This document shows positions 21,792 through 43,648 of a stretch of 60,503 nucleotides of DNA, in pieces. A program made the position numbers and the translations under genes. Each line of letters opens with the position of its first letter. Positions within the stretch are counted from its first letter, which is position 1. The notes beneath the pieces were generated by a model. That model made no database searches and had not been told where the DNA came from. It saw only the letters and a list, made by a program, of their open reading frames with translations. The stretch is from a virus (lineage: Duplodnaviria > Caudoviricetes). The DNA is taken from positions 1 through 60,503 of IMG/VR virus record IMGVR_UViG_3300021478_000004. One strand, given 5' to 3'.

Positions 21792-22259
21792 TTAGCCTTC
21801 CTCGCGTTGCTTGGATCGAAGCGACGACCGACGCCCAGCGCCAATCTCGACGCATTCGGTATGAAACGTCATGATCATGCTGATTACGTCCTCGGCGCAC
21901 CGCGCGGCCGACGCGTTTATCTCGGCGCCCGTGAACCGCAGCAGGCGATAGCCTTGCGCCGTCAGGAACCGATCTCGTTTCTTGTCGCGCGCCGCCTGAT
22001 GCTTCGTGCGCTCGTGGAAATCGTGGCCATCGCACTCCACGACGAGGTCGCTCTCCGCGCCGAAGAACGCATAGGCGACGACGAAATCAACGCGATAGTT
22101 GCCGACTCGCTGCTGTGGACGGATCGCGATCGTGCCGGACCCGGTAGGAACCTTGCCGACGCGATAGCCGTGAGCATGGGCTTCCTCGACGATCGCTGTG
22201 AGCAGCGCGCTTTCGATCGGGCTTTCGGTGGCGCCGAGGAGCGCTTCCCAGCGCGTCAT
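21792..22259 (-). CDS. DUF559 (Vsr-like) endonuclease domain protein
   Basis: ESPIE, YRVDF, VECDGHDFH, D..RDR.L...GY.LLRFTG. Confidence 0.85.
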   Translation of the reverse strand: MTRWEALLGATESPIESALLTAIVEEAHAHGYRVGKVPTGSGTIAIRPQQRVGNYRVDFVVAYAFFGAESDLVVECDGHDFHERTKHQAARDKKRDRFLTAQGYRLLRFTGAEINASAARCAEDVISMIMTFHTECVEIGAGRRSSLRSKQREEG

Positions 22260-23936: not shown

Positions 23937-24626
23937 TCATAACGACATCTCCATCTGCTCGATCTTGCGGGGCTCTTCGAACGGGAGGCGCGGGCGGCGG
24001 AGGGCTTCGGAGAGGCGGCGGCAGGCGATGTCGAAGTATTTTGGCTCTATCTCTATGCCGATGAATGAGCGATCAAGATTAATGCACGAAACTCCAGTCG
24101 TGCCTGAACCCATCAGTGGATCAAGGACGATCTCGCCATAGAAAGACACGCGGTTAACGATCCAATCCATGATTCCCTGCGGCTTGGAACAAGGATGCCC
24201 GTTCGTCTCACGCAGAAATCTTCTAATGATAGAATCGCTTCGACGCCCAAGACCCCTCTGGAGGAAGGGGTCCTTTCCCCAAACAAGAATTGGTTGCCAA
24301 GAGGGAAAGCCCCACACGCATCCACCCTCCCCACTTGGGTCTGTCCAGTTAAGCACCCAATCATCGGCAGGGTACTTCCACATATTTGGAACTCCGCAGG
24401 TCAGTGCTATTCTTGAAGACGCAGCTAGCAGCGGCGGCATGATGTCGGCAATCAAACTAGCAAGGTTGTCTTTAGTGTCATCAAATTCGCCGTACTCTGT
24501 CCCGTTTCCATACGGCGGGTCAGTCACGACAGCATCAACGCGCCCGATTATCGGCAGAACGTCCCGGCAATCTCCGCAATACAGCGTCACGCCGTCCGCC
24601 AATTGTTCCTTGCGAGGCGTGGTCAT
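23937..24626 (-). CDS. Orphan N6-A/N4-C DNA methyltransferase (beta class)
   Basis: TDPPYG, HPCSKP, VLDPLMGSGTTG, FIGIE. Confidence 0.9.
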   Translation of the reverse strand: MTTPRKEQLADGVTLYCGDCRDVLPIIGRVDAVVTDPPYGNGTEYGEFDDTKDNLASLIADIMPPLLAASSRIALTCGVPNMWKYPADDWVLNWTDPSGEGGCVWGFPSWQPILVWGKDPFLQRGLGRRSDSIIRRFLRETNGHPCSKPQGIMDWIVNRVSFYGEIVLDPLMGSGTTGVSCINLDRSFIGIEIEPKYFDIACRRLSEALRRPRLPFEEPRKIEQMEMSL

Positions 24627-25225
24627 TCTGCCGCCTTCATGACTGGATCGAACTTCGTCGCCTCGTTGCCCCAGGTCGCCCAACAGGGCCGCGATTGGCG
24701 GGCGAACAGTTCTAGGTACGGCCCTTCGACGAGGCGCTCGATCCGTTCGTGTACGCAATCGGGCTTGCGGCTGTGTTGCCTGATCGGCTCAATGATCGCT
24801 TGCCTAACCCCCGCGTCGCGTCGCTTTGGCTTTCCCCGAGTGGCCAGCAGGCAGACTTCGCTGTTTGCGCGGGTCCAGTATCCCAGACCCATGCGAAGGT
24901 CTTCCTGCAAAGCAAACAACCTATACTGATCAGCCTTAACCCAAGCGAACGCGCATGTCTTGTATGTGAACCCCCATGACTTAATCAGATCGAGAGCTTC
25001 GGGCATCGTTGGCCAGACAATCCAGACAAATAGGGCGCATGTGTCGGCTGCTATATCGCCGATAGGAAGAGAGGAAAGATCACCCATTTCCATCGTTTCG
25101 TACGGCGTGACGCTGCCTCGGCTGGCGACGCGCTTGTCTTTGCCATCCCAGCATTTAAATCCCCACGGCGGGTCAGCCAAGATCGCCTTGAAGCCTCCCG
25201 GCGTAGTTGGCAGCGGTTCGCTCAC
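24623..25225 (-). CDS. MT-A70 family adenine methyltransferase
   Basis: ILADPPW, MGLGYWTRANSE.CLL, HSRKP, YLELFAR, WGNE. Confidence 0.9.
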   Translation of the reverse strand: MSEPLPTTPGGFKAILADPPWGFKCWDGKDKRVASRGSVTPYETMEMGDLSSLPIGDIAADTCALFVWIVWPTMPEALDLIKSWGFTYKTCAFAWVKADQYRLFALQEDLRMGLGYWTRANSEVCLLATRGKPKRRDAGVRQAIIEPIRQHSRKPDCVHERIERLVEGPYLELFARQSRPCWATWGNEATKFDPVMKAAE

Positions 25226-26311: not shown

Positions 26312-26896
26312 CTATTTGACGTGAGTCCATAACTTTCTATTTACAATTAAACTGATAGTAGATTGATCAACGACAAATTTCTTCGCGAGTACAGATTGCC
26401 GGCATCTAGGCCACAGATTTCTTATCTCAATAACATCAGCATCGCACAATTTGGCATGAGGTTGCATTTCCCCGCGTCTAAGCGTCCCGTGAAGCGCCAT
26501 ATCGCGATGATTTTCTAATGGAGTCGCCCACCGCAAATGTTTTCTAGTTACACACCCGTCGCGGCCTCTCCCACATGAGTGGGCCGCTTCCATACGCTCT
26601 GATGGCGGCGCACCGTTGGCGTGCTCGCAAATAATTCTTGAAACGAATGCAATATTGCCAAATATACGCATCCTAGGACGCCTATCGTCATCGCCGTAAG
26701 GTCCGTATGGCCACATTAAGCATTCATCACCAAAATATTCCTTGGCCATTTCTAAGAATGTGTGTGGACTCCCTTTTGGAGTCCCGCCCGCTAACGGGTC
26801 GCCGTGGCGGCAAACTCTTTGATAATGCGCGCTGCAGAAGCCTCGAGTAATCTTTTTCTCGCTGCCACATCCATCAACGGAACAAACCCTGCTCAT
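26312..26896 (-). CDS. HNH homing endonuclease
   Basis: CSVDGC...CSAHY, C..WP, AHSCG...C....HLRWAT..EN..D...HG, C-terminal HTH. Confidence 0.85.
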   Translation of the reverse strand: MSRVCSVDGCGSEKKITRGFCSAHYQRVCRHGDPLAGGTPKGSPHTFLEMAKEYFGDECLMWPYGPYGDDDRRPRMRIFGNIAFVSRIICEHANGAPPSERMEAAHSCGRGRDGCVTRKHLRWATPLENHRDMALHGTLRRGEMQPHAKLCDADVIEIRNLWPRCRQSVLAKKFVVDQSTISLIVNRKLWTHVK

Positions 26897-26909: not shown

Positions 26910-27512
26910 CTACCGCGACAGCGCGGCGATTGCGTCGTGAAAACCCTTGTCGGTCCTCATATGCTGATAGAGATCGACCGGCTTCTCCCACGCGACGAAC
27001 GTCGGGTTCGCGATCATCGAGAGTCCAACCCGCGAGACGGCTGCCGAAGGCCGATAACGCTTCTTTGGCGCGCCGCGCTGCGACGGCTCTTGCAGCGTCC
27101 GCTTCTGATGCGGAAGCGCCTTGCCATATCTTCGATCAGAGGCTGCGGCATGCTCGCTCTTCGCCTCCTCCGCGAATGCCCCCCGGCTCCGGTTCACGAT
27201 GCCGATCGGCGTATTCCTCGTCATCCCGCCGCCGAACCGGATAGCGATATCGGCGGCCGTCCAGCCGTCGGCCCACAGCCTCAACACGCGCGCCTCGCGA
27301 TCGAGGTTCTCCGGGCTCATGAATCTTCGAACCTCTCGCAGCGCCTTGTTGCGAAAGTGCTCGCGAATGGTCTCGTCGTCTGCGCCGTATTTGATGATTC
27401 CATTCGCCTTGCTTTCGGTGATCCCTTGTTCTCTCCCGATCTCTGAGGCGAACTTGCCCTTCGCCCACTCGGCGATGATGCGGGATTTCAACTCAGGAGG
27501 GTTAGCGCTCAT
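26910..27512 (-). CDS. GcrA-like cell-cycle regulator (two HTH units)
   Basis: LRLWADGWTAADIA.RFGGGMTRNTPIG.VNR matches the GcrA N-terminal HTH; an extra N-terminal W.KG..ASEIG repeat. Confidence 0.7.
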   Translation of the reverse strand: MSANPPELKSRIIAEWAKGKFASEIGREQGITESKANGIIKYGADDETIREHFRNKALREVRRFMSPENLDREARVLRLWADGWTAADIAIRFGGGMTRNTPIGIVNRSRGAFAEEAKSEHAAASDRRYGKALPHQKRTLQEPSQRGAPKKRYRPSAAVSRVGLSMIANPTFVAWEKPVDLYQHMRTDKGFHDAIAALSR

Positions 27513-28853: not shown

Positions 28854-29072
28854 TCATTCTGCGGCGACCTTCCTCGCATGCGCGAACATGAGAATTTCGG
28901 CCGTCAGACCTATCTCTCGGCCTTTTTCGCTTGCGAGAATGGTAGGCCAGTATGCCGGGGGAATAGACCCGCGCCGCTTCATTTCCGAAGCCGTGGAGGG
29001 TCCTACGGACAGGATGCGCGCTACGTTCGCGCCCCCGCCCAGCTTCTCGACAATTTCAGCGACCGTGTTCAT
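28854..29072 (-). CDS. Cro-like repressor
   Basis: I...LGG...VAR.L.V..ST.SEMKRRGSIP..YW; divergent from CI. Confidence 0.8.
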   Translation of the reverse strand: MNTVAEIVEKLGGGANVARILSVGPSTASEMKRRGSIPPAYWPTILASEKGREIGLTAEILMFAHARKVAAE

Positions 29073-29085
29073 GCCTACACGGCCT

Positions 29086-29122
29086 ACACTACTCATGTTG
29101 GCTTTGTCAACATGATTTATGT
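29086..29122. promoter_or_regulatory. OR-like operators and cro promoter
   Basis: ACACTACTCATGT (29086-29098) and ACATGATTTATGT (29110-29122) flank TTGACA on the minus strand (29110-29105). Confidence 0.65.
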
Positions 29123-29148
29123 GCACCAGCCGAAATATCTTCCAGCCC

Positions 29149-29640
29149 ATGGATGAGACGATGGGAGAACGGCTGAAAAGCGCGCGGATCGCCTTGGGCA
29201 TTCCATCGGCGAGAAAGGCGGCAAAGCGATTCGGCTGGACGATATCCACCTATGCCGCTCACGAGAACGGCCAAAATAATTTCGATTCGGCAACCGCGGC
29301 TATTTACGCCAAGACGTACAATGTTTCTGCGGCGTGGCTGCTCACTGGCGAGGGGTATCGCTCCGCTAAGGCTCTTTCTCGGACCAATCCGACGCAGCCG
29401 GACGCGCCACATGCGGCACGGGCGCCAACGGGCATTTCGTTGACGGGCAGGCTTCGCAGCATAGAGCCAGACGAAACACCTGAGTTACAGAACGTGTGGG
29501 AACTGGTCGAGGCGACAGTTCGCAAGGTCTTTCCGTTCGCCGCAGATAGGCTTCCCACGGAGGATGAAGTTCTCGCTCTGGTAAGGTCAGTGATAGCAGA
29601 CTTCGAAGCCCGGAGAGTTCTGCCGCCTCGTGGTAAGTGA
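29149..29640 (+). CDS. CI-like XRE repressor without a recognisable S24 peptidase domain
   Basis: ERLK.AR...G..SA..AA..FGW..STY.AHENG...WLLTGEG. Confidence 0.8.
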   Translation: MDETMGERLKSARIALGIPSARKAAKRFGWTISTYAAHENGQNNFDSATAAIYAKTYNVSAAWLLTGEGYRSAKALSRTNPTQPDAPHAARAPTGISLTGRLRSIEPDETPELQNVWELVEATVRKVFPFAADRLPTEDEVLALVRSVIADFEARRVLPPRGK

Positions 29641-29880
29641 GCGGATAGCCGAATTCGTCCTTCAGCATAAGATCGCAAAGACGACATAGCAGCTGCGCGC
29701 GCGTCAAGTCTGCGCTACACATTGGCATTTCCCCACTGGATAATTTACTTATCTACATTTCACGCGATAGCCGTCATAAACCGTTAACATATAATATGAA
29801 TATATTGTGACCGTTTGGAAAGTCAAATCGGCGTGTGCGCGCCGCTCACGCGGACGCCGCGAAAATAAATTCGCCCGTCT

Positions 29881-29921
29881 ACATTTTCCATGTTGACATG
29901 ATTTGTGTTCGCGTGTACGCC
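29881..29921 (+). promoter_or_regulatory. OL/PL-like operator pair and promoter
   Basis: ACATTTTCCATGT (29881-29893) and ACATGATTTGTGT (29896-29908) overlap TTGACA (29893-29898); TACGCC 17 bp downstream. Confidence 0.65.
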
Positions 29922-29969
29922 TCTCCCCACGCCGAAGCACGGAGCGCGGCGAACCCGGGGAAAGATGCA

Positions 29970-30506
29970 GTGCTAACCGATCTCACTGTCGAACGCGTAA
30001 GGCAGGTTTTGGATTACGATCCTGAGACCGGCATCTTCACGTGGATTGTACGCCTGAGTAACCGGGCATGTGAGGGGCATGCTACCAAGGGCAGTCTGGA
30101 CGGAAAGGGCTATTACCGCCTGATGATTGATCGGCGGACGTATCAAGCCCATCGCATCGCGTGGCTCCATGCCTATGGAGTGTGGCCGACCATGGTGATC
30201 GATCACATCGATCGCGATCCTGCCAATAATCGTCTGAGCAACCTACGCGATGTCTCCTATGCCGTGAATAGCACTAACTGCTCGCCGTCGCACGGAGGTC
30301 ACGCGCGGGACACCGACGCACGTGGATGCACGTTCGTAGCGAGAACGCAGAGGTGGCAGGCGCAAATATCAATCAACGGAGTCAACAAATATCTAGGTTA
30401 TTTCAAAGAACTAGCCGACGCTAGGGCTGCGTATAAGCGGGCCAAACTTGAGCACGAGCAATCCACCGACGCCAAATTCGCCGCCCTCCGCGCCGCGCTG
30501 GCCTGA
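29970..30506 (+). CDS. HNH-AP2 homing endonuclease
   Basis: YDPETG.F.W, AHRIAW, IDHID....NN..SNLR, W.AQI......YLG.F...A..AY. Confidence 0.9.
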   Translation: MLTDLTVERVRQVLDYDPETGIFTWIVRLSNRACEGHATKGSLDGKGYYRLMIDRRTYQAHRIAWLHAYGVWPTMVIDHIDRDPANNRLSNLRDVSYAVNSTNCSPSHGGHARDTDARGCTFVARTQRWQAQISINGVNKYLGYFKELADARAAYKRAKLEHEQSTDAKFAALRAALA

Positions 30507-31869: not shown

Positions 31870-32066
31870 AATGGCTCGCTATCGTCTGCGCAACGCTGAT
31901 CCCGACCGCCGACATGGACCGCGACCCCCGCCCGGCGCCGACACGCTGGCCCGGAATGCGCGACGACCGCGTCCCGCTGCCGCACAACGGCGCTTGCCCG
32001 GGATCATTCGAGACGCCGTGGAACTACGATAGGAAACATGGCCAGATTTGCGTCAGGAGGGCGTGA
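31866..32066 (+). CDS. Small protein with hydrophobic N-terminus
   Basis: MKWLAIVCATLIPTA; GGAGG RBS. Confidence 0.5.
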   Translation: MKWLAIVCATLIPTADMDRDPRPAPTRWPGMRDDRVPLPHNGACPGSFETPWNYDRKHGQICVRRA

Positions 32067-33085
32067 TGATCGAGGATAATTTTCAGCAACTAGGCGACAT
32101 CGCCGCCGGCATCGTCGCTGGCCTCAAGCCGACTCGCGCCGATGTGCCCAGCGAGTGGTTTTGGTGGGAACGGGCGTTGGAGTCGGGAAAGCCGGCCGAG
32201 ACTGAGGTCGGCAATCCGCGCTCTGGATTTTGGCGCGTCAGAGACCGCAATGCCGATCGCAGCCTGCGGTGGGACGCTGTGGCTATCTGGCGCGAGGATG
32301 GCGAGGTCTACTGCTCGCGAACCGGCCCGCGCCCCGCGCCCGAAGGAATCGACGCGATTGACGAATTGTTCGCCTATTGTGCCGCCAACCCGATTAGCCA
32401 CGAACTTTATATAGCGATCGAGAACGGCGAGGCGTGGCCGGAGGATGTCGCGCCGGCTACGGAGGCCCCCGTCGCCCTCTTGCCTCACGAGGAGGTCGCT
32501 GACGCGCTCGCCAAGCAACAGTTAGCGGCCAAAGCGTGGTTCACAGTGCTTGGCCATAAGCCGGCCTCGCAGGGGGAGGCTGACAAGGCCGCCAACTTCG
32601 GGACCGAATTCGACAAGATCAGGAAAAAGGCCGTTGCGCTGCATACGATCGAGAAGGAGCCATTTCTGGCCGGAGGTCGCGAAGTCGATTCACGATATTT
32701 CCCGACGCGCGACGCGGCGATAATCGCAGCCAAATGGGCAAAGGGTCTGTCCGACGATTACGTGAAGGCCGAGAATGCGAGGCGCGCTGAAGAGGCTAGG
32801 ATCGCCAATGAGGCCGCCCGTAAGAGGGCTGACGGTGCACTACCGGAGCCAAAGACGATCGTAGCCGAGCCCGTGCGCGTCGGAACAGCCGGGCGCCGGC
32901 AATCGCTGCGAACGATAGAAACGTGGGAGTTGGAATCTATCGGGCAATTGCTGCTGTTTCTATCGGAGCGAAACCACTTCAGCCAAGACTTGGTCGACGC
33001 CGCGACCAGAGAGGGACGCTCGCTCGCGAAATCCGGGGCTGACGTTCCGGGGATGAAAAAGGTCATAACGGAGGAAGTGAGATGA
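32066..33085 (+). CDS. Hypothetical protein upstream of the recombinase
   Basis: AGGAGG RBS; EKEPFL..GR.VD..Y and VPG motifs typical of genes beside SSAPs. Confidence 0.7.
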   Translation: MIEDNFQQLGDIAAGIVAGLKPTRADVPSEWFWWERALESGKPAETEVGNPRSGFWRVRDRNADRSLRWDAVAIWREDGEVYCSRTGPRPAPEGIDAIDELFAYCAANPISHELYIAIENGEAWPEDVAPATEAPVALLPHEEVADALAKQQLAAKAWFTVLGHKPASQGEADKAANFGTEFDKIRKKAVALHTIEKEPFLAGGREVDSRYFPTRDAAIIAAKWAKGLSDDYVKAENARRAEEARIANEAARKRADGALPEPKTIVAEPVRVGTAGRRQSLRTIETWELESIGQLLLFLSERNHFSQDLVDAATREGRSLAKSGADVPGMKKVITEEVR

Positions 33086-34071
33086 ACGAGATTGCCACCA
33101 TAGAACCCCGCGCCAAATCGGTAACCGCCGCGATGGCCGATAAGTTCGGAATGGACCCGGGGCCATTTGAACAGACATTGCGCGCCACCGTATTTCCCAG
33201 CGTCGGCACGCGCGAGCAATTCGCAGCGTTTCTCCTGGTAGCAAAGGAATACGACCTCAATCCGCTGACGAAGGAGATTTACGCCTTCCCCGGGAAGGGC
33301 GGCGGGATTGTTCCCGTTGTCAGTATCGACGGCTGGGTGACGATGATCAATCGCCATCCCAAATTCGACGGGATGGATTTTCAAGACAACCTCGATAGCG
33401 AGGATCAACTCCTTTCGATCGAATGCTCGATCTGGCGCTCAGATCGCTCGCGGCCCATCGTCGTTACGGAATATCTGTCGGAATGCTACCGGGCGACAGA
33501 CGCATGGAAAATGAAACACCGCATGCTGCGGCACAAGGCGCTGATCCAATGCGCCCGATACGCCTTCGGGTTCTCCGGTATCTATGATCCGGACGAGGGC
33601 GAGCGAATCGTGGAAGCCCAGGGCGGAAATGGACTGCCACGCTTGACGATGCCTTCCCGCCGGACCCCTCCGGCCCCGCCCAAGAGGCGCGCCGAAACTG
33701 TCGATCCCGAGACGGGCGAAATCATCGAACACGAGCAAGACAGCCCCGCCCCCGGCGCGGCCACGGAACCCGCGGGCGGCGTACCCCCAGGCCCGGCGGA
33801 GGCGTCCCCGCAAGGGCCGCTGGAAGGCGCTGCGGTCTCTCCCAGCAGCGGGGCTGCGGTGCCTTCCGATCCGGAGGCCGCCCTGGAAGCCGGTCGCAAG
33901 GCCGAAATCCTTGCGACCGGCAACGCGCGGACGCAGGGCGGGACAAAGGCTGTGACTGCGTATCTCCTGGAATTGCAGAAGGACGGCGAAATCGACCTAA
34001 TTTCCAACATTCAGCGGTCCGCGTGGCATGACGCGGCTAAGGCGGCGGATGTGGAGCGGGGGAGGAAGTGA
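33082..34071 (+). CDS. bet: Bet/RecT-family single-strand annealing protein
   Basis: LNPLTKEIYAFP.K.GGIVPVVSIDGW, EY..EC, RMLRHKALIQCARYAFGFSGIYDPDE. Confidence 0.92.
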   Translation: MNEIATIEPRAKSVTAAMADKFGMDPGPFEQTLRATVFPSVGTREQFAAFLLVAKEYDLNPLTKEIYAFPGKGGGIVPVVSIDGWVTMINRHPKFDGMDFQDNLDSEDQLLSIECSIWRSDRSRPIVVTEYLSECYRATDAWKMKHRMLRHKALIQCARYAFGFSGIYDPDEGERIVEAQGGNGLPRLTMPSRRTPPAPPKRRAETVDPETGEIIEHEQDSPAPGAATEPAGGVPPGPAEASPQGPLEGAAVSPSSGAAVPSDPEAALEAGRKAEILATGNARTQGGTKAVTAYLLELQKDGEIDLISNIQRSAWHDAAKAADVERGRK

Positions 34072-34517
34072 TGGGAGAAAAGGACACAATGAAAATGGAA
34101 AAGCCGATTCTATGCGTCGATTTCGATGGCGTAATCCACAGCTACACGAGCGGATGGAAAGGCGAAACCGTCATTCCCGACCCGCCCGTGAGGGGCGCTA
34201 TCAAATGGCTATGGAAAGCCACCGAATGGTTCGACGTCCAAATCTATTCGTCGCGATCGAAAAGCCCGAATGCGATTATTGAAATGAAGCGGTGGCTGAT
34301 CCAGCACTCGGTAGACCAACTAGGACTTGATCATCCGATGGCCGGGGCCGGAGGCTCTGTCGACGGCTTTAATATCCCCTACCCGATCAAATTCGCATCC
34401 GAAAAACCTGCTGCATTCCTAACGATTGACGACCGCGCCATCTGCTTCGAAGGCGAGTGGGATGATCTGGAGCCCGCAGACCTATTGAACTTCAAGCCCT
34501 GGAATAAGCGCTCATGA
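34068..34517 (+). CDS. HAD-superfamily phosphatase
   Basis: VDFDGVIHSY, SSR, KP.A...IDDRA. Confidence 0.85.
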   Translation: MMGEKDTMKMEKPILCVDFDGVIHSYTSGWKGETVIPDPPVRGAIKWLWKATEWFDVQIYSSRSKSPNAIIEMKRWLIQHSVDQLGLDHPMAGAGGSVDGFNIPYPIKFASEKPAAFLTIDDRAICFEGEWDDLEPADLLNFKPWNKRS

Positions 34518-34798
34518 AAATCACTTGGCACGACTCCGCCCGAGAGCCGCAATGCGCCCCGAATCCCGCCTACCCAGACGGGGTCGACCTCGATGCCTCC
34601 GATGGGGCGAAAACATCCTGCAAAGCCGTGCTGCCCTACCCCGCTAAGCGCTGTGGGTATTTCCTCGTGATTTGCGAGGCATGCGGCGTATCGGCCGCTA
34701 TCACGACGGCCGGACGGCGAGATGATCCGCGATCGGTGAAGCTGCCATGTAAGTTGGCGGATGCGGAGCGGGGACGTGCCGCGGGAGGGCGGGGATGA
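34514..34798 (+). CDS. Hypothetical Cys-rich protein
   Basis: P.C.PNP.YP.G.D.D...C...LPYPA..CG...C..CG. Confidence 0.65.
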   Translation: MKITWHDSAREPQCAPNPAYPDGVDLDASDGAKTSCKAVLPYPAKRCGYFLVICEACGVSAAITTAGRRDDPRSVKLPCKLADAERGRAAGGRG

Positions 34799-35199
34799 GC
34801 GACATGCGCCGTTTGTTATTCACGACGAAACTGTTGTTCGCCAATTCCGAGGCGTGCGTGGCCAATCATCACGGCTTCAAACTCGGCGATCAATATCCCG
34901 GATGGTTGGCCGACTGCCGCAAGAATATCGAGATCGCCGAGGCGTCCCTCCAGCTTCCCGATCCGGCGCCAGACCCACACGAGGCCACGATCGCCCGCCT
35001 ATCCGCCGAGCTGGACGCAGCGCGCGTCGAGACTGAGCGGATGTTGGAGACGTGGAACAAGGCGAATCACGAAGCAAACGCTTCTATGGCCGCGTACGAA
35101 GCCGAGTTAGCACTGACCCGCGAGGCGCTGGACCTTTTCACCGCGCTCGACCCTGACGGAGCCCGCGCCGTGCTGGCCAAGATCGCTAAGTGGACATGA
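34795..35199 (+). CDS. Hypothetical protein
   Basis: ATGA-coupled; coiled coil. Confidence 0.6.
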   Translation: MSDMRRLLFTTKLLFANSEACVANHHGFKLGDQYPGWLADCRKNIEIAEASLQLPDPAPDPHEATIARLSAELDAARVETERMLETWNKANHEANASMAAYEAELALTREALDLFTALDPDGARAVLAKIAKWT

Positions 35200-35203
35200 G
35201 CAG

Positions 35204-35470
35204 ATGCGGTTGATCGATCCGTGGCCGGAGATACTCCTCGTCCTCGTTTCTTTCTGGATGAGCGGAATGCTCTGGATGGCGTCGCCAGACGCGCCAGGCC
35301 CCGAAATGAAGTGGTGTGATCAGCGCGGCTGGTCTGGAATGCTCGACGGAAAGTGCATGGGGGTCACGATGGACCCGATTCCGCTGCCGTCCGCAGGAAC
35401 TTGCCCCGGAGCGTATGTGCTCTGGACTTACGATCCTAACAAGCCGGCAATTTGCGTGAGGAAAGCGTGA
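35204..35470 (+). CDS. Small membrane-anchored Cys-containing protein
   Basis: N-terminal hydrophobic helix; 4 Cys. Confidence 0.55.
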   Translation: MRLIDPWPEILLVLVSFWMSGMLWMASPDAPGPEMKWCDQRGWSGMLDGKCMGVTMDPIPLPSAGTCPGAYVLWTYDPNKPAICVRKA

Positions 35471-35673
35471 TGCCCAGGCGAACCGAGCTAGTCGCTCCGA
35501 TGCGCTACGAACGCCGCGCCTTGCGCCCCAAAGATGCCGCAACGGCATATGGAATCTCCCGCTCTCTGCTATACGAGTGGATTAAAGCCGGCCGCCTTGC
35601 GAGCGTTCGCATCGGCGGCGCTCGTTTGATCTCGGTCGATGCCCTGGAGGCTCTCATCTCGGGGTCCAAATGA
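35470..35673 (+). CDS. xis: Excisionase (HTH_17/MerR-like)
   Basis: AA...GISRS.LYE.I..GRL.SV.IGG.RLI...L; abuts attP. Confidence 0.8.
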   Translation: MPRRTELVAPMRYERRALRPKDAATAYGISRSLLYEWIKAGRLASVRIGGARLISVDALEALISGSK

Positions 35674-35686
35674 ACCCGCGCGCAAG

Positions 35687-35917
35687 TTGGGGCAAATGTT
35701 GGGGCAAAGCTTTCGTGCTGAAAAATATCTCTATTAAATCAGATGCTTGGGCCGGGCATATGGCGGAAGCCCGCTCCGCCAATCTATTGTCCATCCGAGT
35801 CCACGTGAGTCCACAAATAGCCGTTAATTCAGTGGATTAGACGGCTTAGTTGTCCAGATACGTCCATCGGCGTACACCCCGAGCCAGGACCTTAATTAGG
35901 GCAAATGTTAGGGCAAA
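35687..35917. mobile_element. attP of a P4-type tyrosine-integrase system, probably targeting a tRNA (Ser-like) 3' end
   Basis: Arm repeats TTGGGGCAAA x2 (35687, 35699) and TTAGGGCAAA x2 (35896, 35908); core TGGCGGA-N7-TCCGCCA (35761-35781); IHF-consensus AATCAGATGCTTG (35737-35749); GTCCA repeats at 10-bp spacing. Confidence 0.8.
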
Positions 35918-35935
35918 AATCGGGCGCAATAGGAG

Positions 35936-36223
35936 ATGAAAGGGATCATCAGCATGAGTGGAGAAATGATAGAACGCGTCGCGAAGGCCATTATCGACAC
36001 AATGTTCGAGGAGCACGAACTACCGCTTGAAGACGCAATTTACGAGAAGTATCTGGTAACGGCTGATGCTGGAATGTCGGCGCTTCACCAGCCTACCGAG
36101 GCAATGCTTGACGCCGCGCGCGACTGGTCGGCGAAGAAATACGGGGTAGGCATCGGGAATAAGGATGCAATCGGCTGCTGGCAAGCCATGCTCGCCGCCG
36201 CGCGCGGGAACCCGCCGACATGA
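35936..36223 (+). CDS. Hypothetical protein
   Basis: MIERVAKAI...PTEAM..A...WQAM..AA pattern common in alphaproteobacterial phages. Confidence 0.7.
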   Translation: MKGIISMSGEMIERVAKAIIDTMFEEHELPLEDAIYEKYLVTADAGMSALHQPTEAMLDAARDWSAKKYGVGIGNKDAIGCWQAMLAAARGNPPT

Positions 36224-36432
36224 AAACAACTCCGCCCGCCCCACCGTCCCAACGGGATAGCCGAGATGGAACTTATGGCTCTGCTAGTAATAATCCTGCC
36301 GCTGTTGGTGTGGGCTATTTTGCAAACTCAAATCAATTCTCTCGAAAAACGCATAATGGAACTCGAGAAGACCAGCTACCGCCTGAGCCTGCCCAAGGGC
36401 GCGGGCGGGGCGGCCTGATGAAAGGAACCGAC

Positions 36433-36930
36433 ATGCTAAAATTAATCATAGCCGCTGCCATACTGGCGATGGCGTCTCCGGCTTGGGCAGACGATGGCGG
36501 CGTTCCCCCGCTCATGTGCGGAGAAAAACCCTGTCTAATTGAATGCGGTGACGCTCATTGCTGGCGTTCTGGTGGTATCCCTACGGAAAGTCCGCAAGTC
36601 GATCGCTCCTGGCATCTCCTGACCCAGAGCGAAGGCGGAACGGTCTCGCTGCTGAAAGACTTGACCAAGCACGAATGCGAGTTCGCTATGCACCGAGCGA
36701 AAGGCGAGCCGGCAACTGATCAGGAAGTGCAAAAGGCGATTCAGGACAAAATAGACGAAGAAGCCCTCCTAGCACAGGCGAGGGAATTCTGCGCTAATCC
36801 AGAAACACCTGAGCCTAGGCGACAAAAGAATTGTTACCAAGGCGTGCCATTGTTTTACTTCATGAACCATAACCATGGCGGCAACTCGACTCAGCCCGGG
36901 GACATCAGGTCAGCGGAGTGCTTCCAATGA
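36433..36930 (+). CDS. Secreted Cys-rich protein
   Basis: AAAGGA RBS; MLKLIIAAAILAMASPAWA| leader; 8 Cys. Confidence 0.7.
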   Translation: MLKLIIAAAILAMASPAWADDGGVPPLMCGEKPCLIECGDAHCWRSGGIPTESPQVDRSWHLLTQSEGGTVSLLKDLTKHECEFAMHRAKGEPATDQEVQKAIQDKIDEEALLAQAREFCANPETPEPRRQKNCYQGVPLFYFMNHNHGGNSTQPGDIRSAECFQ

Positions 36931-36979
36931 AAGCCATCGTTGTGTGCGCCCTACTGGCGATGGCGTCTCCGGCTTGGGC
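36461..36979 (+). repeat. 28-bp direct repeat (36461-36488, 36952-36979) encoding LAMASPAWA
   Basis: TACTGGCGATGGCGTCTCCGGCTTGGGC occurs twice. Confidence 0.9.
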
Positions 36980-37562
36980 TGTCGACTGCGAGACGGGTTA
37001 TCTTTGGCGACCGGGGGATGGATGCGTCAAGAGCGATGCGGGCGGCGTTGGGATGGATTCCGCATGGTGCTCGGCCGATAATGCTCATTGGTTTCCCCCA
37101 CGCGATGACGGACTATGCCACGCAGAGGACGTCCCCACTACTTCCGGGCGATGGGTCGATATCCCGACCACCACTATCTGGCCTGATAGGCACGGAGGCG
37201 GCTGGCCTGACATGCGCGGCGGAGGCGCTGGGGGTGTTGGTGGTGGCCCATTCCAGAGAGTCATCGAAGACGCCCCAGGCTTAACCGGAGGCGGCGTAGG
37301 AACGCAGGCCGATTGTGGTTCAGGCTGGATTCTCATGAGCGACCATCCCCACTTGTGCTGGAAGGATGGCCTAGTGAAGAGATTTCCCCCAGGCTCGGTA
37401 TGGAGTGATAAATGCTCGGGTGACGGATGCGTGGGTGTTGGACATGGAACTATAGAATGGTCAAATCCAGTAGCGCCAATCTGCCCCGCCGGCGACGCCC
37501 TTCTTGCCTATCCCGGAACATGGACGCTTGTCTGCGCGCGAGATTTGCAGATTCCGAAATGA
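36927..37562 (+). CDS. Secreted Cys/Gly/Trp-rich protein
   Basis: MKAIVVCALLAMASPAWA| leader; 10 Cys in the mature part, in apparent pairs. Confidence 0.7.
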   Translation: MKAIVVCALLAMASPAWAVDCETGYLWRPGDGCVKSDAGGVGMDSAWCSADNAHWFPPRDDGLCHAEDVPTTSGRWVDIPTTTIWPDRHGGGWPDMRGGGAGGVGGGPFQRVIEDAPGLTGGGVGTQADCGSGWILMSDHPHLCWKDGLVKRFPPGSVWSDKCSGDGCVGVGHGTIEWSNPVAPICPAGDALLAYPGTWTLVCARDLQIPK

Positions 37563-37696
37563 GTGACTCTTGCGGACTAGTTCACGCCTTCGAATGGCAA
37601 CAATCCATATCATTAATAATTTGCTGTAACTTTGTCGCGACGGCGATGGTCATCATCATATTAACTCGGAGACGGAAGCGGGCGGGATAGGAGAGG

Positions 37697-37888
37697 GTGA
37701 AAATGAAGCTGGCAATTATTATCGCCTGTACACTGGCATCGGGGGCTTTCGCTGGTATCGCCGTGGTCATCGGCGTTAGCACCACAAAATCTAACCCACT
37801 TCTGGCAATCCCGTTCGCTTTCGTGTTCATGGTGGGATTAGCGGGGTCGGCTTGGCTTTTTTCGCCCGATGGACCGTTGGCTCGATGA
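37697..37888 (+). CDS. Small two-TM membrane protein
   Basis: AGGAG RBS; two hydrophobic helices. Confidence 0.55.
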   Translation: MKMKLAIIIACTLASGAFAGIAVVIGVSTTKSNPLLAIPFAFVFMVGLAGSAWLFSPDGPLAR

Positions 37889-37910
37889 TGCGACGGGAGA
37901 GGAGATAGCG

Positions 37911-38093
37911 ATGGAAAGCCAGGAATATCGCGATGGGATTGACGCCTTTAGCGCGGGGAAGCCGATTGAAGCCAACCCTTATGAGAACTACGAATGGAGC
38001 GGTTCTTACAACGATTGGAACCGCGGATGGCGAGACGCCAAAGAACAAGCCTCAGACGACCAGGATACTCGGGAAGGGCGCTATATTTCCTAA
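37911..38093 (+). CDS. RMF-like small protein
   Basis: GAGGAG RBS; Y.DG..AF..G....NPY.......W..GW. Confidence 0.55.
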   Translation: MESQEYRDGIDAFSAGKPIEANPYENYEWSGSYNDWNRGWRDAKEQASDDQDTREGRYIS

Positions 38094-38135
38094 CCTCCCC
38101 GCCACGCCTGCCAATGCGCCGCATGGGAGAGAGCG

Positions 38136-38249
38136 ATGGATCGATTGACTGACCGTCAGCTTAGATTGCTGCTAGTCGCGGCGATATGCCTCTGCATAGC
38201 CTGCATTACCGCGATGCTGGGTCCGCTGCCGAAGTTAGTACTGCCCTAA
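38136..38249 (+). CDS. 37-aa hydrophobic peptide
   Basis: GGGAG RBS; MDRLTDRQLRLLLVAAICLCIACITAMLGPLPKLVLP. Confidence 0.45.
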   Translation: MDRLTDRQLRLLLVAAICLCIACITAMLGPLPKLVLP

Positions 38250-38341
38250 CCCCGCACCGCCCACCACATCGCCGCCGCGAACAACAGCGTGCCCGTAATC
38301 GCTATGATCGCGGCGATGTGCGGAGAAGGGTGGGGGGTCAT
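38246..38341 (-). CDS. 31-aa hydrophobic peptide
   Basis: ATGA-coupled to the upstream gene; MTPHPSPHIAAIIAITGTLLFAAAMWWAVRG. Confidence 0.45.
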   Translation of the reverse strand: MTPHPSPHIAAIIAITGTLLFAAAMWWAVRG

Positions 38342-39201
38342 ACCTGACGAGTGTCGTTGTTAGGATGATAATAATTATTCGCTATATGTCCTCGTTGAAA
38401 GAACCCTATTATCGCAATGATGCCTGCACCAGTCGCGATGATGCCAAATATCCACGTTACCGTCTGATCTGTTCCTCCTTTATTACCTTCTATCCGATCC
38501 AACCGAGACTTAGTGTCTATGAGTTGTGCTTGCATCGAAGCGATCGTGTTCTGTGAGATAGCCAGCGGACCTTCAGACTTGTCTAGCCGAGATTTCAAAT
38601 CGGTAATCTGCGCCGTTTGCGCCGATATTTCAGATGACGCCAGCGTCCGTAGCTGTGCAAGCTGTTCTGTGGTCTGTGTCTGTGCTTTTTCGATTGCACT
38701 GGCGCTGCTCTTGTTCTGTTCGCCCACCGCCTCCTTCGCAGCTTGGAGGGCCGCCGCGATAGCGGTTGAGCTCGCCGCGGTTCGCTCTTGGAATTGTATC
38801 GCGAGGACGGAGAGCTTACCGCTCACTTCCTCGAGTTTTCCGCTCAACTCCTCTCGTTTTGTGGCCGCCTCCGATGAGATGACGGCGAGCTTGCTATCGA
38901 ATAGCGCTTGCACCCCATTGATGGCGCGGTCGACAATCGTCGGCACCCGAACCGAGTCTTCATGCGCAAGCTGGATCGCCTTTTCGATCGCGTCAAACCG
39001 GACGCCGTTCTGCAGGAGAACCGATGCAATCGCCCGATCCACGTCCAAGCGAGAAACTTTGTCGGTGTCGTTGGAATACTGATTGAACTGCGGTTGCGTG
39101 CTCGGCGGCGTGACCTTCCCGATAACAGGCGGATTGACATCCTGCGCCCACGCGCTGCCGGAGAGCACGACGATACATGCGGCGAAGACAAGCGCTCTCA
39201 T
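38338..39201 (-). CDS. Signal peptide, long coiled coil and C-terminal TM protein
   Basis: MRALVFAACIVVLSGSAWA|Q; heptads; WIFGIIATGAGIIAIIGFF. Confidence 0.75.
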   Translation of the reverse strand: MRALVFAACIVVLSGSAWAQDVNPPVIGKVTPPSTQPQFNQYSNDTDKVSRLDVDRAIASVLLQNGVRFDAIEKAIQLAHEDSVRVPTIVDRAINGVQALFDSKLAVISSEAATKREELSGKLEEVSGKLSVLAIQFQERTAASSTAIAAALQAAKEAVGEQNKSSASAIEKAQTQTTEQLAQLRTLASSEISAQTAQITDLKSRLDKSEGPLAISQNTIASMQAQLIDTKSRLDRIEGNKGGTDQTVTWIFGIIATGAGIIAIIGFFQRGHIANNYYHPNNDTRQV

Positions 39202-39587
39202 ATCGAAGGCAACCTACAGCCTCGGACGAACGCGACGATCTGCTTCGATGCGTCCTCGGTAATGATGCCAGAAAACGTGACGTGGCCGTACTGAGTGACC
39301 GTGATCGTCGTCTGGAACACCTGGATCGTCAGCCCTCCGCCCATTAGAGCCTTTCCGTCCTTCCTCGCTCGACTATCGTCGAGGTGATGCTCGTGACCGT
39401 CAATCCATGCGATGACCGTTAGCGGATGCGCCCGGTCCTGGTCCAATGTCACTTGATGGGATTCCGACGCATTGCTAACCGAGAACGTGACCGGCATCGG
39501 CATGTGGTGGCGACCTCGCAAGGCGATGGCGTCTGTTAGGCACGCGACCACGACCAGGATGCACGCGGCGAGGACGAGCGGCTTCAT
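39198..39587 (-). CDS. Secreted hypothetical protein
   Basis: MKPLVLAACILVVVACLTDAIA leader. Confidence 0.6.
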   Translation of the reverse strand: MKPLVLAACILVVVACLTDAIALRGRHHMPMPVTFSVSNASESHQVTLDQDRAHPLTVIAWIDGHEHHLDDSRARKDGKALMGGGLTIQVFQTTITVTQYGHVTFSGIITEDASKQIVAFVRGCRLPSI

Positions 39588-39596
39588 GCGGCTAGG

Positions 39597-39944
39597 TCAC
39601 GCCGCGAGGTCTGGCAGCCCACAGGCCTTGATGAAGGCCGCTAGCGCCGCGGATTGACTGGCAGGAACCGTACCTGCGTAGTGGACACCGGCTTGGGAAA
39701 TATCCAGCGCCACCGCATGATTGACTACATCGACGGTCAGGTTGACCTTGTCGCCCTTCCACACCCATATATCCACGAGGCCGCTGAGCGCATCGCCCGC
39801 GCCGTTAGCGGTGCACTCGTAGACGACATGTGGGCGGCCATCGACAGACGAATTGATCGTGCGCTTGTTGTTCGCGTCCTGCTTCACGACAATCCTATGT
39901 GTGCCAGCAGGAGATGTAACGTTGAGGATAACTTGGTTTGACAT
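39597..39944 (-). CDS. Hypothetical protein
   Basis: AAAGGA RBS; C-terminal FI..C.LP shared with 39198..39587. Confidence 0.6.
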   Translation of the reverse strand: MSNQVILNVTSPAGTHRIVVKQDANNKRTINSSVDGRPHVVYECTANGAGDALSGLVDIWVWKGDKVNLTVDVVNHAVALDISQAGVHYAGTVPASQSAALAAFIKACGLPDLAA

Positions 39945-40253
39945 GGAGAGGTTTCCTTTGGGTTGATGGATTATACTTACCGCGTAGAACCGATGGTCCG
40001 TGACGCCTTCGCCTCAAGCATGCGGACGCGCATCTCCAGCGCGTCGATCATCCTCACCAGGGTCGGAACCCAGACGCGTGCGTCCGACACGTCGCTGACC
40101 AAAACGCCGCAGGCATCTGCGGACGGGTCGGCGGAGCGCTGGTCCCGCACGCGGTCGCGCTCCTGGTAATCGGATGTCATAGTCGGGGCTCCCACTACTG
40201 CTATGCTCGCTCGCGTCTATTCGGTGTCTCACGAGGCGGGGGAGCCCCTTCTC

Positions 40254-41191: not shown

Positions 41192-41521
41192 CTAGTACGA
41201 CAGCGGGATAAAGAAGCAGCGGACGTCGCCGATCTTAGGCGGCGCGTCATGTTCCTGCCAAACAGTAACTCCGAAGAGCCAGTAATCGCCGTCCTGGCTC
41301 GGGTCCGTCTGTGAAAGCGGGATCACGCCATCGTGGCCGTCGACCAGATATCCGCCGTCAACGCGATGGACTTGCTCGGGCTTTAGGTGGTGGACGTCGT
41401 TTATACCACAACATCTCTGTGCGACCCACGCGGGAACCGGTTCCCCGTTGGCCCAGAATTTATGCGCAAAGGCACTTGAACAATTTAGAATAAGGATCGC
41501 AGCGACCATCATGTTGCGCAT
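41192..41521 (-). CDS. Secreted Cys-containing protein
   Basis: Leader ...SSAFA|H; CC..D, S.DG.YW, CFF.P. Confidence 0.7.
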   Translation of the reverse strand: MRNMMVAAILILNCSSAFAHKFWANGEPVPAWVAQRCCGINDVHHLKPEQVHRVDGGYLVDGHDGVIPLSQTDPSQDGDYWLFGVTVWQEHDAPPKIGDVRCFFIPLSY

Positions 41522-42129
41522 CGTCGTGCCTTTCCATTCACAATCCTGCAAACGTGGCTCGGAGATATCCCGTATTCGGATGCCAATCCTCTAATGGTCT
41601 TGCCGCCGCGGGAATGAGCGGCAATCACAGATGACATCACTTCATCGGAAAATCTTACCGCTCCGTAATAATTTGCCGTTCCATGAAGTATCTTGTCTTG
41701 TTCGTTCTCTACGGGCGTCGCCCAGCGGAGATGGCGGGGATTGACACACTTTCTGTTGCCGCACGAATGGGCGCTTTGATGTTGTTCAGTCGGGGCCAGC
41801 CCGTATGTTCTTTCGCATACAATGTGATTGGCCGTGCTTGTTGATCTGTTTCTGCTCCAAACTCCATATCCCTTGTCGCCGAGTGCGAAAGGCCACGGCA
41901 AGCATTCATCGGAATCGTGCGCTAGGATCGTTTTTGTCCAAAACTCCTCGATCGGACCTTCGCCAATGCGACATGTCGTCTTTCGCCCCAGACGAAACCG
42001 CTCATAGTGAGCGTGACACATCATTCTAGCGTAAAACGGTCTTTGGCAGTCGCCTACCGTGCAATGCTCGGGCGGCGATCTATTAGGCTTGCTAACGCGC
42101 GCGATTTCGGGCTTGCTCTGAGCAGCCAT
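41509..42129 (-). CDS. HNH homing endonuclease (paralogous to 26312..26896)
   Basis: C....C...CHAHY, C.PWP, AHSCGNRKCVNP.HLRWAT..EN..D...HGT. Confidence 0.85.
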   Translation of the reverse strand: MAAQSKPEIARVSKPNRSPPEHCTVGDCQRPFYARMMCHAHYERFRLGRKTTCRIGEGPIEEFWTKTILAHDSDECLPWPFALGDKGYGVWSRNRSTSTANHIVCERTYGLAPTEQHQSAHSCGNRKCVNPRHLRWATPVENEQDKILHGTANYYGAVRFSDEVMSSVIAAHSRGGKTIRGLASEYGISPSHVCRIVNGKARRCAT

Positions 42130-42251
42130 GACGGTCTCCAATCCAGATCGTTGTGGTTAGCGCCGTCGAACGTGTTGCAAGCACTTCGGCGGCGCGCCTT
42201 TCAGCGAAGTAACAATACGAGAATCGACCAACGTTTGCAAGGGATTCCGCC

Positions 42252-42596
42252 TCATCGCCCTCGCGAAGTTGACGGCACGCCAGGATCGGGCGTGAACACG
42301 ATCTGCACCGCGACTGCTGCGGGAATGCCGGCCTTGGCGCTGACGGCCACCGCGGCAACCTGAATGGTTTTATTTGCATAGAAACTATTCGCGATGTCTG
42401 ACATGATCGCCACGGCGGCCGTTATGTCGAGCAGCGGATTCGTCCCCTCGGCAAGCGCTGCGGCCAAAACCTGCTGAAATGGAAATGCGTCGAGAAACTG
42501 AAGGAACTCGTTGGCTGGCTTCGTTTGGCCCGACGCAGGTTTGATGCCGGCTATGATCGCCTGGAGGTATTGGCCGATCGTCGAGAGGATCGTCAT
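42252..42596 (-). CDS. Hypothetical protein in the lysis cassette
   Basis: ATGA-coupled to the holin. Confidence 0.6.
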   Translation of the reverse strand: MTILSTIGQYLQAIIAGIKPASGQTKPANEFLQFLDAFPFQQVLAAALAEGTNPLLDITAAVAIMSDIANSFYANKTIQVAAVAVSAKAGIPAAVAVQIVFTPDPGVPSTSRGR

Positions 42597-42889
42597 GCTG
42601 GTCCCTTTAACGGGTGATCGATTGCCGGAGTCATCGCCGTCGCCGGAACGACTTTGACCCCATTATTTGCGGTGTTGACGGCGGCAATCTGAGCGGTTGG
42701 CGTATGCGACCGCGTCTTGTACCAAGCCAAGCCTGCGGCTACGGCTCCGGCCCCTATCATGACAATGTCGTTCGCGAACGATGATTGATCGGCGGAAGGT
42801 ATCAGTCCTTTGCTGGCCGCCCATGCCGCAATGCCTGTCGCGGCATAGCCGGCAACCGTGGTCAAAATGCTCTTGAGTTGCGGGTCCAT
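42593..42889 (-). CDS. Putative holin (2 TM)
   Basis: Two hydrophobic helices; directly downstream of the endolysin. Confidence 0.7.
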   Translation of the reverse strand: MDPQLKSILTTVAGYAATGIAAWAASKGLIPSADQSSFANDIVMIGAGAVAAGLAWYKTRSHTPTAQIAAVNTANNGVKVVPATAMTPAIDHPLKGPA

Positions 42890-42977: not shown

Positions 42978-43433
42978 TCAGTCATATTGTTCAAGACCGT
43001 TGTGGTTGATCACCGCCATCAGCGCCGCGGGGTAGTTCGGAGCCGTGGCGTAGCCGCATGCGTGCAGGGCTTGGGCGTAGGCGTCGGGGGACTTGGCATC
43101 GATGCAACGCTGATAATGCGGGGACGTGAGAAGCGCGGCATGGGCGTCGAAAGCAGCTTCAAGGGAAGGGTAATTGGCGAACCATTGTTGCTCGGCGACG
43201 TAGCGATGACCGATATACTCGTGGGTCAGGACCAGCCGAGCTTGCCCTGACGCGCGCTGCGCCTGGGTTGCCTTTATGCCAAAAGGATTGTTCACCCCCG
43301 ACAAATGCGCGCCATAGCCTGATTCTACAGCCCACTGAGCGAGCGAGATGGACACGAACGGCCCGCGCGGTGAAAACTTGGCGTGGCTCGCGCGGGCGAT
43401 TGGGATGATGGGGAGAAAGCGGGAATCGGTCAT
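42978..43433 (-). CDS. Endolysin, glucosaminidase (GH73/FlgJ-like)
   Basis: LAQWAVESGYG, NNPFGIKA, T.EY, F..Y.S, GYATAPNY, L..YD. Confidence 0.9.
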   Translation of the reverse strand: MTDSRFLPIIPIARASHAKFSPRGPFVSISLAQWAVESGYGAHLSGVNNPFGIKATQAQRASGQARLVLTHEYIGHRYVAEQQWFANYPSLEAAFDAHAALLTSPHYQRCIDAKSPDAYAQALHACGYATAPNYPAALMAVINHNGLEQYD

Positions 43434-43648
43434 GGCTGTAGATTCCACCGCAGGATGTATGTCGTCTTGTCTTCGCGAACGCACTCATAATGCGGCAGCG
43501 TGCCGTTGCAGTCTCGCGCTGGCTCCTGCTCGCAAAATTCGCGCACAGTGTGAGCTGCAAGATCGGCCACCGGACGACAAATTGTCGGGCCGGGGAGGCA
43601 ACCCATCGCCGTCACCATCGTCGGAACGACCAGCGTGCAGATATCCAT
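43430..43648 (-). CDS. Small Cys-rich protein
   Basis: AAAGGA RBS; 6 Cys. Confidence 0.5.
   Translation of the reverse strand: MDICTLVVPTMVTAMGCLPGPTICRPVADLAAHTVREFCEQEPARDCNGTLPHYECVREDKTTYILRWNLQP

Follow-up and report, generated by a model that had tools for sequence, protein, structure and literature searches.

A probable attP site and an excisionase-like gene in a closed tailed-phage genome that has no integrase

We found that a complete tailed-phage genome from soil, the IMG/VR record IMGVR_UViG_3300021478_000004 (Caudoviricetes; 60503 bp, analysed as a whole and referred to below as the window), very probably carries an entire lambda-type phage attachment site (attP) at 35687-35917. 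The site lies directly downstream of a gene for a likely excisionase, and the genome has no detectable integrase gene. A sequence-only reading of this DNA had claimed the same combination in a closed genome, and closure stands: a 127-bp direct repeat common to both ends marks an assembly circle, so that the genome is a closed one of 60.4 kb, the record belongs to the direct terminal repeat (DTR) class, and its CheckV completeness is 100. On balance, we favor the view that the attachment site and the excisionase-like gene (xis) are orphans, left behind after the cognate integrase gene (int) was replaced by other genes.

The arm repeats of the putative attP are confined to a single place in the genome. 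The motif TTRGGGCAAA occurs exactly four times in the window, at 35687, 35699, 35896 and 35908, always on the + strand; allowing up to one mismatch raises the number of matches to seven, and the remaining three are imperfect and lie elsewhere. The four exact copies make up two pairs with a 12-bp spacing, 209 bp apart, all within the gap after the xis-like gene. The P-arm pair, TTGGGGCAAA-TG-TTGGGGCAAA (35687-35708, + strand), lies 74 and 62 bp before the core, and the P′-arm pair, TTAGGGCAAA-TG-TTAGGGCAAA (35896-35917, + strand), lies 135 and 147 bp after the core start and is directly followed by a degenerate third arm copy (35918-35929, + strand). The core itself (35761-35781) consists of 7-bp inverted repeats, TGGCGGA and TCCGCCA, around the 7-bp spacer AGCCCGC. 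It has no other match in the window even at one mismatch, and shuffled sequences gave a mean of 0.03 matches. The stems are presumed to be core-type sites and AGCCCGC the overlap region. Inverted core-type sites around an overlap of 6-8 bp, with distinct arm-type sites on both sides, are what an attP of this kind should have. The right part of the core, GCCCGCTCCGCCA, resembles the 3′ end of tRNA-Ser.

Further elements fill the two arms. The A+T-rich DNA that separates the P arm from the core contains, at 35737-35749 (+ strand), a match to WATCARNNNNTTR, which we take to be the consensus of integration host factor (IHF) type. Its position suits a bending site; however, since this is one of six matches in the window against 1.57 expected, the match is weak evidence when considered alone. 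On the other side of the core there is a GTCCA triplet with a 10-bp period (35789-35813, + strand) and a second, GT(C/A)CA, triplet (35852-35876, + strand), the first two repeats of which stand 44 and 34 bp before the arm pair. No other 10-bp-phased GTMCA triplets are present in the window and none arose in 100 shuffles. It is possible that they are sites for an accessory protein of the Xis type, that is, a recombination directionality factor (RDF). Judging by position and by what is known of lambda, the missing integrase would have bound the arms and the core, and the Xis-like protein the GTCCA repeats. The sequence-only reading had listed the arm repeats on both sides, the symmetric 7-7-7 core, the IHF consensus and the two phased runs as parts of a complete attP, and every one of them was recovered.

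The same stretch might instead be a terminator-promoter control region, for instance one in which the HTH_17 protein encoded by the xis-like gene acts as an AlpA-type regulator, or an iteron origin. In favor of this, the repeats separate two gene blocks of the same orientation, the HTH_17 family has regulators among its members (phrog_66 and phrog_1746), and a simple terminator scan flags the core hairpin at 35761-35781. That scan returned one hit where 1.3 were expected in shuffles, and T residues are scarce in the tail of the hairpin, ATCTATTGTC. A search of 35000-36500 gave no sigma-70-like promoter, nor did Rfam return anything relevant for the att region. No HTH_17 homolog occurs near the arm motif in 80 genome loci, and the replication genes, primosomal/initiator-like (21006-21785, − strand) and primase/helicase (19250-20848, − strand), are 14 kb away on the other strand. 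Moreover, the architecture of the site is collinear with regions that adjoin integrase and tRNA genes, as described below. Either of these alternatives to an att site is, in our judgment, highly improbable.

The xis-like gene (35470-35673, + strand) encodes a protein of only 67 residues. Its stop codon precedes the first arm pair by 13 bp, as the sequence-only reading had it. The protein matches the Pfam family HTH_17 (PF12728) at 2.4e-11 and phrog_66, annotated as 'excisionase and transcriptional regulator', at 1.2e-6. A small protein with an HTH_17 DNA-binding domain, encoded next to an att site, is RDF-like, and HTH_17-like open reading frames (ORFs) are also found 0.4-3.2 kb from related integrases at 7 of 34 viral loci (E≤0.1). 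The 67-residue protein is thus a likely candidate excisionase. No relatives of it turned up among 62 candidate viral contig stretches, in the phage collection or in four structurally related records.

The att region has homologs that adjoin integrase genes. The closest, on the metagenome contig L118, has the stems TGGCGGA...TCCGCC, GTCCG repeats 44 and 34 bp before the arms TTAGGGCAAA/TTGGGGCAAA, and then the start codon of a 413-residue integrase with Arm-DNA-bind_3 (2.4e-20), Phage_int_M and Phage_integrase domains. By blastn, the phage and L118 align in two collinear segments with one offset, 76.7% identical over 60 nt (window 35861-35920, E 7e-9) and 72% over 36 nt, and their best local alignment scores 51, the maximum of 200 shuffles being 30. 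The second homolog, L170, and a third, L099, both belong to an alphaproteobacterial metagenome-assembled genome (MAG), G010. The distance from the core start to the arms is 135/147 bp in the phage, L118 and L170 alike. The pair TTGGGGCAAA/TTAGGGCAAA of L099 is separated by 76 and 64 bp from a tRNA-Ser(GGA) gene, measured to its 3′ end; in the phage, the distances to the core are 74 and 62 bp. Thus, the phage site shares with L118 and L170 the arm motif, the core stems (TGGCGGA ... CCGCC) and the 135/147-bp spacing, and with L118 also phased GTCCR repeats, 44 and 34 bp ahead of the arms. The same −44/−34 bp spacing, with GTCCA, can be read in the sequence of a further locus, L103. Unlike the phage, both L118 and L170 have an integrase ORF or its remnant 10-20 bp past the arms, and the 7-bp spacer differs in each (GACGCAG in L118, GCGGGCG in L170, AGCCCGC in the phage). 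They also lack a distal P arm and therefore resemble attL/attR junctions. Given this collinearity with L118, L170 and L099, the claim of a complete attP is well founded.

Two peculiarities of these loci deserve mention. At L170 (G010:C4, ~1250-1700), the core and arms are intact and the integrase is apparently disrupted: only residues 26-104, the arm-binding domain, match, at 80% identity to L118, the gene start is in another frame, and the rest of the 437-residue frame is unrelated. An error in the MAG might account for this, or int may have been replaced a second time at this very boundary. In L118, positions 1690-1768 (− strand), ~50 bp from the att core, match the 3′ end of a group II intron (domains V-VI) at 35 bits, under the gathering score of 40 (E 1e-4).

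The integrase that such a site calls for is missing. Six-frame searches of the window found no Phage_integrase (PF00589), Resolvase (PF00239) or DDE-transposase-type rve (PF00665) domain, no Arm-DNA-bind_3 (PF13356) at E≤1, and no ParA-type AAA_31 (PF13614), ParB_N (PF02195) or protelomerase (PF16684), and positive-control genomes matched every one of the models used. A custom hidden Markov model (HMM) of L118-type integrases was applied to the window cut into 1615 stop-to-stop pieces; its best E was 1.1, and in a tblastn search with the integrase of locus L030 the lowest E was 4.2. Nor did a recombinase emerge when ORFs selected as long enough to encode an integrase were scanned with Pfam and/or PHROG. 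Neither at 35936, where the gene would be expected, nor elsewhere in the genome was an integrase remnant found. The sequence-only reading, which had seen no integrase, ParA or protelomerase and had proposed six-frame searches for integrase and resolvase families, is borne out; the genome is devoid of both a cognate integrase and the other means of stable lysogeny that were looked for, partition and protelomerase genes.

Where the gene should have been follows from the homologs. In L118, L170 and the relatives L127-L159, the start of int lies 10-40 bp beyond the arm pair nearest to it, and two of these relatives (L154 and L155) have the order small DNA-binding gene, arm pair, core, arm pair, int. 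The missing gene therefore belongs at about 35936. This revises the sequence-only reading, which took xis-int-attP as the usual layout and singled out 35660-35700 as the junction to be checked: the homologs place int after the P′ arm rather than between xis and the site, so the relevant point is about 35936 instead. Exactly there, where the homologs have the integrase start codon, a 95-residue ORF begins (35936-36223, + strand). It has no Pfam family, matches weakly phrog_5913 (function unknown), and its C-terminal 42 residues recur in other phages that have no att site or int nearby. Two cysteine-rich ORFs follow (36220-36930 and 36918-37562, + strand), without a Pfam or PHROG family and with near-identical signal-peptide-like stretches, and may encode secreted-type proteins, a moron-like cargo. 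Across 35.6-38.8 kb, the G+C content falls to 0.52-0.58. The signal-peptide-like stretch common to the two cysteine-rich ORFs is LAMASPAWA; in the first ORF it is internal, suggesting a later true start. A third secreted-type ORF, with a coiled coil and no family found, is located at 38338-39201 on the − strand. In two of four sequencing runs compared with the window, contigs match it until 36186 (run X4) and 36203 (run X3), close to the end of the 95-residue ORF, and then continue into unrelated sequence, which marks a mosaic boundary in related genomes.

Could the lack of int be an artefact of the population or the assembly, the real phage having int past the P′ arm and the circle being a chimeric path or a variant that arose by deletion or replacement? 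To address the assembly, we used Logan contigs of the four runs (X1-X4), produced by another assembler; such contigs miss rare variants and junctions. A 60406-bp contig of X2 (depth 43) shows no differences over the region, a 6357-bp contig of X1 covers 33855-40211, again with no differences, and a 270-bp contig of X3 covers 35430-35699. Among the joints and loose ends listed for contigs of the four runs, none falls at the core or at 35918-35936. The read mapping proposed in the sequence-only reading for 35660-35700 is thereby answered in part: the X1 and X2 contigs span that interval and agree fully, as contigs rather than raw reads. An artefact is made conceivable by the loss of rare variants from contigs, by the possibility that X1 and X2 are the source samples, and by the mosaic relatives indicated nearby by the divergence of the X3 and X4 contigs at 36203 and 36186. 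Nevertheless, with an independent assembler giving no differences in either X1 or X2 and no loose end at the P′ arm edge among those listed, we regard this explanation as improbable.

The target of the site can be narrowed down through the relatives of the L118 integrase. The viral collection contains 34 loci with such relatives (39-54% identical), 20 of them with upstream DNA; 13 of the 34 were scanned for tRNA genes, and all of these except L131 are among the 20. In 5 of the 13, a complete tRNA-Ser gene lies directly upstream of int (L144, L150, L151, L152 and L158). L131 has a partial tRNA 3′ end containing CCCGCTCCGCCA, and several L118-type relatives bear partial ends in ...TCCGCCA. Tandem pairs with a 12-bp period were seen within 130 bp of int in 11 of the 20 loci with upstream DNA. 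Two loci (L136 and L142) have a second pair 220-221 bp further upstream, close to the 209 bp of the phage, and represent the attP form with int present. In the phage, CCCGCTCCGCCA (12 nt) is identical to the tRNA-Ser(GGA) 3′ end of two sphingomonad MAGs. A search pattern for such ends matched 2 of 5 and 11 of 301 sampled genomes, the 301 being Alphaproteobacteria, with 4 matches for the reversed control; most but not all of the matches have the full 12 nt. The likeness of the right part of the core to a tRNA-Ser 3′ end, pointed out in the sequence-only reading, is therefore real, and the search it suggested among alphaproteobacterial tRNA-Ser ends and integrases produced these ends together with the arms of L170 and L099, though no attB. 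Sublocations within tRNA genes are classified by integrase subfamily. The site appears to belong to an arm-binding tyrosine integrase family that inserts at tRNA-Ser 3′ ends.

The arm motif was also surveyed more widely. We searched 185,579 species genomes for the arm pair, leaving the 2 nt between its copies free; this yielded 88 stretches, and 80 loci were read. Most of them are generic 12-bp tandem duplications in unrelated taxa, and the raw count of arm pairs is for that reason uninformative. The Pfam tally of these loci left out 10 near-identical Streptococcus loci; of the 67 upstream ORFs, 5 contained Phage_integrase, and of the 63 downstream ORFs, 2 did. Homologs of window ORFs, among them HTH_17 homologs of xis, are encoded at none of the 80 loci. 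The exact TG-spacer pair recurs in Rubrivivax-type MAGs in two settings. On the tRNA side (L085 and L092), the pair is followed after ~70 bp by an oppositely oriented, complete gene for tRNA-Arg or tRNA-Pro, whereas on the int side (L030 and L103) a partial tRNA 3′ end, ~125 bp, the pair and a P4-like integrase gene come one after another. Metagenome contigs yielded 11 loci at which the pair is exact: an integrase follows directly in 5, one represents the tRNA-Arg side, and the remaining 5 are rich in A+T and unrelated. Because the pairs adjoin integrases and tRNAs, the repeats behave like the arm-type sites of arm-binding integrases. The core pattern gave only 3-mismatch matches in four Rubrivivax-type MAGs, in one of the four, no better than the reversed control, and the exact arm pattern had no match in the viral contig collection.

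In the course of this survey, we observed that two distantly related integrase subfamilies, one represented by L030, L103, L116, L119, L124 and L126 and the other by L118 and L170, use the identical pair TTGGGGCAAATGTTGGGGCAAA. The two are only 36% identical over 47 residues of the arm-binding domain, and they differ in target: the L030 type is associated with tRNA-Arg/tRNA-Pro and a ~48-bp identity block, the L118 type with tRNA-Ser and a block of 12-15 nt. The shared pair points to either a conserved arm-recognition code or an exchange of arm modules. In mitis-group streptococci (L025, L032, L038, L094 and the 10 near-identical Streptococcus loci), the gene for a 406-residue tyrosine integrase ends 8 bp ahead of TTAGGGCAAATTTTAGGGCAAA, and rplM, which encodes ribosomal protein L13, is ~0.5 kb off; here the same arm-like motif is present in a Gram-positive element.

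The ancestry of the phage is in keeping with former integration. An integrase is encoded by both complete structural relatives, whose portal proteins are 47-52% identical, and one of the two is a provirus; the lineage is therefore temperate. The early region of the phage has no counterpart in the structural relatives G001 and G003. In the phage collection, DNA of 33000-38000 has only RecT-type matches, the major head protein matches six records, all at no more than 34% identity, and the ORF at 34795-35199, considered as a handle to relatives, led to one weak locus only.

Taken together, these observations suggest the following course of events. The phage would derive from a temperate line that once had int just after the P′ arm. 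At the edge of that arm, int would have been replaced by the 95-residue ORF and the two genes for putative secreted proteins. With the cognate integrase absent and no remnant of it left, attP and xis would now be orphans, and since other genes would have taken its place, the phage could no longer integrate alone, only with an integrase from elsewhere. The anatomy of the site, its homologous architecture and the lack of int are observed directly; that int was lost recently and that the site now lies idle is what we infer from them, and its recent replacement by cargo genes is the simplest account.

The main competitor of this account is integrase piracy: attP and xis would be functional, and integration into and excision from tRNA-Ser would be performed in trans by the integrase of a resident L118/L170-type element. 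The four exact arm sites, the perfect 7/7 stems and the intact xis would all be expected, and the repressor-like switch has been kept in a genome where six-frame searches detected no ParA, ParB or protelomerase. L118 and L170 have the same arm motif, core stems and 135/147-bp spacing, and a single alphaproteobacterial MAG, G010, holds two such att regions, L099 and L170. Flawless sites combined with donor-like elements therefore make the use of an integrase in trans a live alternative. Mobile units bounded by att sites and moved by the integrase of another element, known as cis-mobilizable elements (CIMEs), have reportedly been observed. There is also a precedent in the GIsul2 integrase, which reportedly mobilizes the CR2-sul2 unit (PMC9376610). 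On the other hand, neither the genome scan nor the contigs listed revealed a junction or an integrated copy, the spacers of L118 and L170 are unlike AGCCCGC, so that neither exemplifies a donor with exactly the same target use, and a recent loss of int would explain matters equally simply. All in all, piracy seems to us rather unlikely.

Several observations weigh against an orphaned attP at this position. The perfection of the arm pairs and of the 7/7 stems, along with an intact xis, fits selection at least as well as a relic. The assembly support is not independent if X1 and X2 are the source samples. No integrated copy of the phage and no attL/attR junction was found in the genome scan or among the contigs listed. 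Identity of the core with real tRNA-Ser(GGA) ends extends over only 12 nt, no attB was identified, and the two leftmost bases of the presumed overlap differ from those tRNA-Ser(GGA) genes. In L170, the core strand opposite int reads ...CGCCCGCTCCGCCA and has 13 nt in common with the + strand of the phage; with respect to the arms, the overlap thus points in opposite directions in the two. To these may be added the terminator-like score of the core hairpin. Even so, the replacement of int, with attP and xis left behind, remains the reading that we consider probable.

In the rest of the genome, the virion and lysis genes run on the − strand from ~43.6 kb across the ends to ~16 kb and include those for the major head protein (5942-7105), portal (8329-10308), TerL (14332-15834), TerS (15698-16363), a glucosaminidase (42978-43484) and a weakly matching holin (42593-42889). 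The + strand block that leads to the att site comprises, in this order, an HTH_19 repressor-like ORF (29119-29640; phrog_4 repressor, 1.3e-11), an HNH endonuclease, an exonuclease-like gene (32048-33085; phrog_10477 exonuclease, 6.9e-5), RecT (33082-34071; 9e-22), this gene and the exonuclease-like one both being upstream of the xis-like gene in the same operon, several small ORFs and the 67-residue HTH_17 gene; a 262-bp gap, the 95-residue ORF and the two cysteine-rich ORFs come next. Divergent from the HTH_19 ORF there is a 72-residue Cro/YdaS-like ORF (28857-29072, − strand). Accordingly, of the CI/Cro switch described in the sequence-only reading, the repressor-like half is clear and the Cro-like half is weak, its E of 0.0033 being under the Pfam cut-off. 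ARAGORN detected no tRNA gene in the whole window. MT-A70 methylase, N6_N4 methylase and a weak GcrA-like HTH (E 4e-4, under the cut-off) are encoded at 24623-25225, 23937-24758 and 26910-27512. Together they hint at an alphaproteobacterial host, and this setting, already assumed in the sequence-only reading, is plausible. Genes of homing-endonuclease type (HNH, HNH_3, T5orf172/MUG113 and DUF559/MTES_1575) are unusually many for the genome size (29835-30506, 41509-42141, 26312-26896, 16815-17447 and 21792-22259). A 280-residue ORF (17844-18686) matched only hypothetical phage clusters in the ESM Atlas, all under 0.9.

In lambda, attP is a complex att site on which a tyrosine integrase acts through arm-type and core-type sites, with roles for IHF and Xis. 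The phage site resembles it in having arm repeats on both sides, inverted core sites separated by a 7-bp overlap, an A+T-rich arm with an IHF-type site and a small RDF-like gene nearby, and also in lying downstream of an exo/RecT operon that leads from a repressor/Cro-like switch. It differs in its arm motif, its tRNA-Ser 3′ end target, the lack of an integrase gene and the order RDF-attP-(int) instead of the xis-int-attP of lambda. P4-like island integrases (Arm-DNA-bind_3, Phage_int_M and Phage_integrase) are flanked by the identical pair TTGGGGCAAATGTTGGGGCAAA on the int-proximal and tRNA-proximal sides; however, the integrases of such Rubrivivax-type islands are distant from the L118 type (36% over 47 residues), have a ~48-bp tRNA block and use other tRNAs. 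CIMEs and CR2-sul2-type elements likewise possess recombination sites without an integrase of their own, but they are small chromosomal elements, whereas here the site belongs to a complete 60-kb tailed-phage genome, for which use in trans is only proposed. The lactococcal P335 phage C41431, temperate-derived, likewise combines a repressor module with the lack of an integrase gene; the available part of its description does not report an intact attP and RDF gene having been kept (PMC7693887).

If the site is a relic, the genome offers a clean natural snapshot of a temperate phage losing integration, with int swapped for secreted-protein cargo at the edge of the P′ arm. It also calls for caution: the lifestyle of a phage should not be called from xis, attP or repressor genes alone. 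If, on the contrary, the site is used, then integration functions would be shared in trans between phages and genomic islands, which would alter the way in which genomes are used to predict lysogeny and host range, and piracy between phages and chromosomal islands would run opposite to its usual direction. In that case, because TTRGGGCAAA is common to two distant integrase subfamilies, the recognition code of their arm-binding domains would become experimentally approachable.

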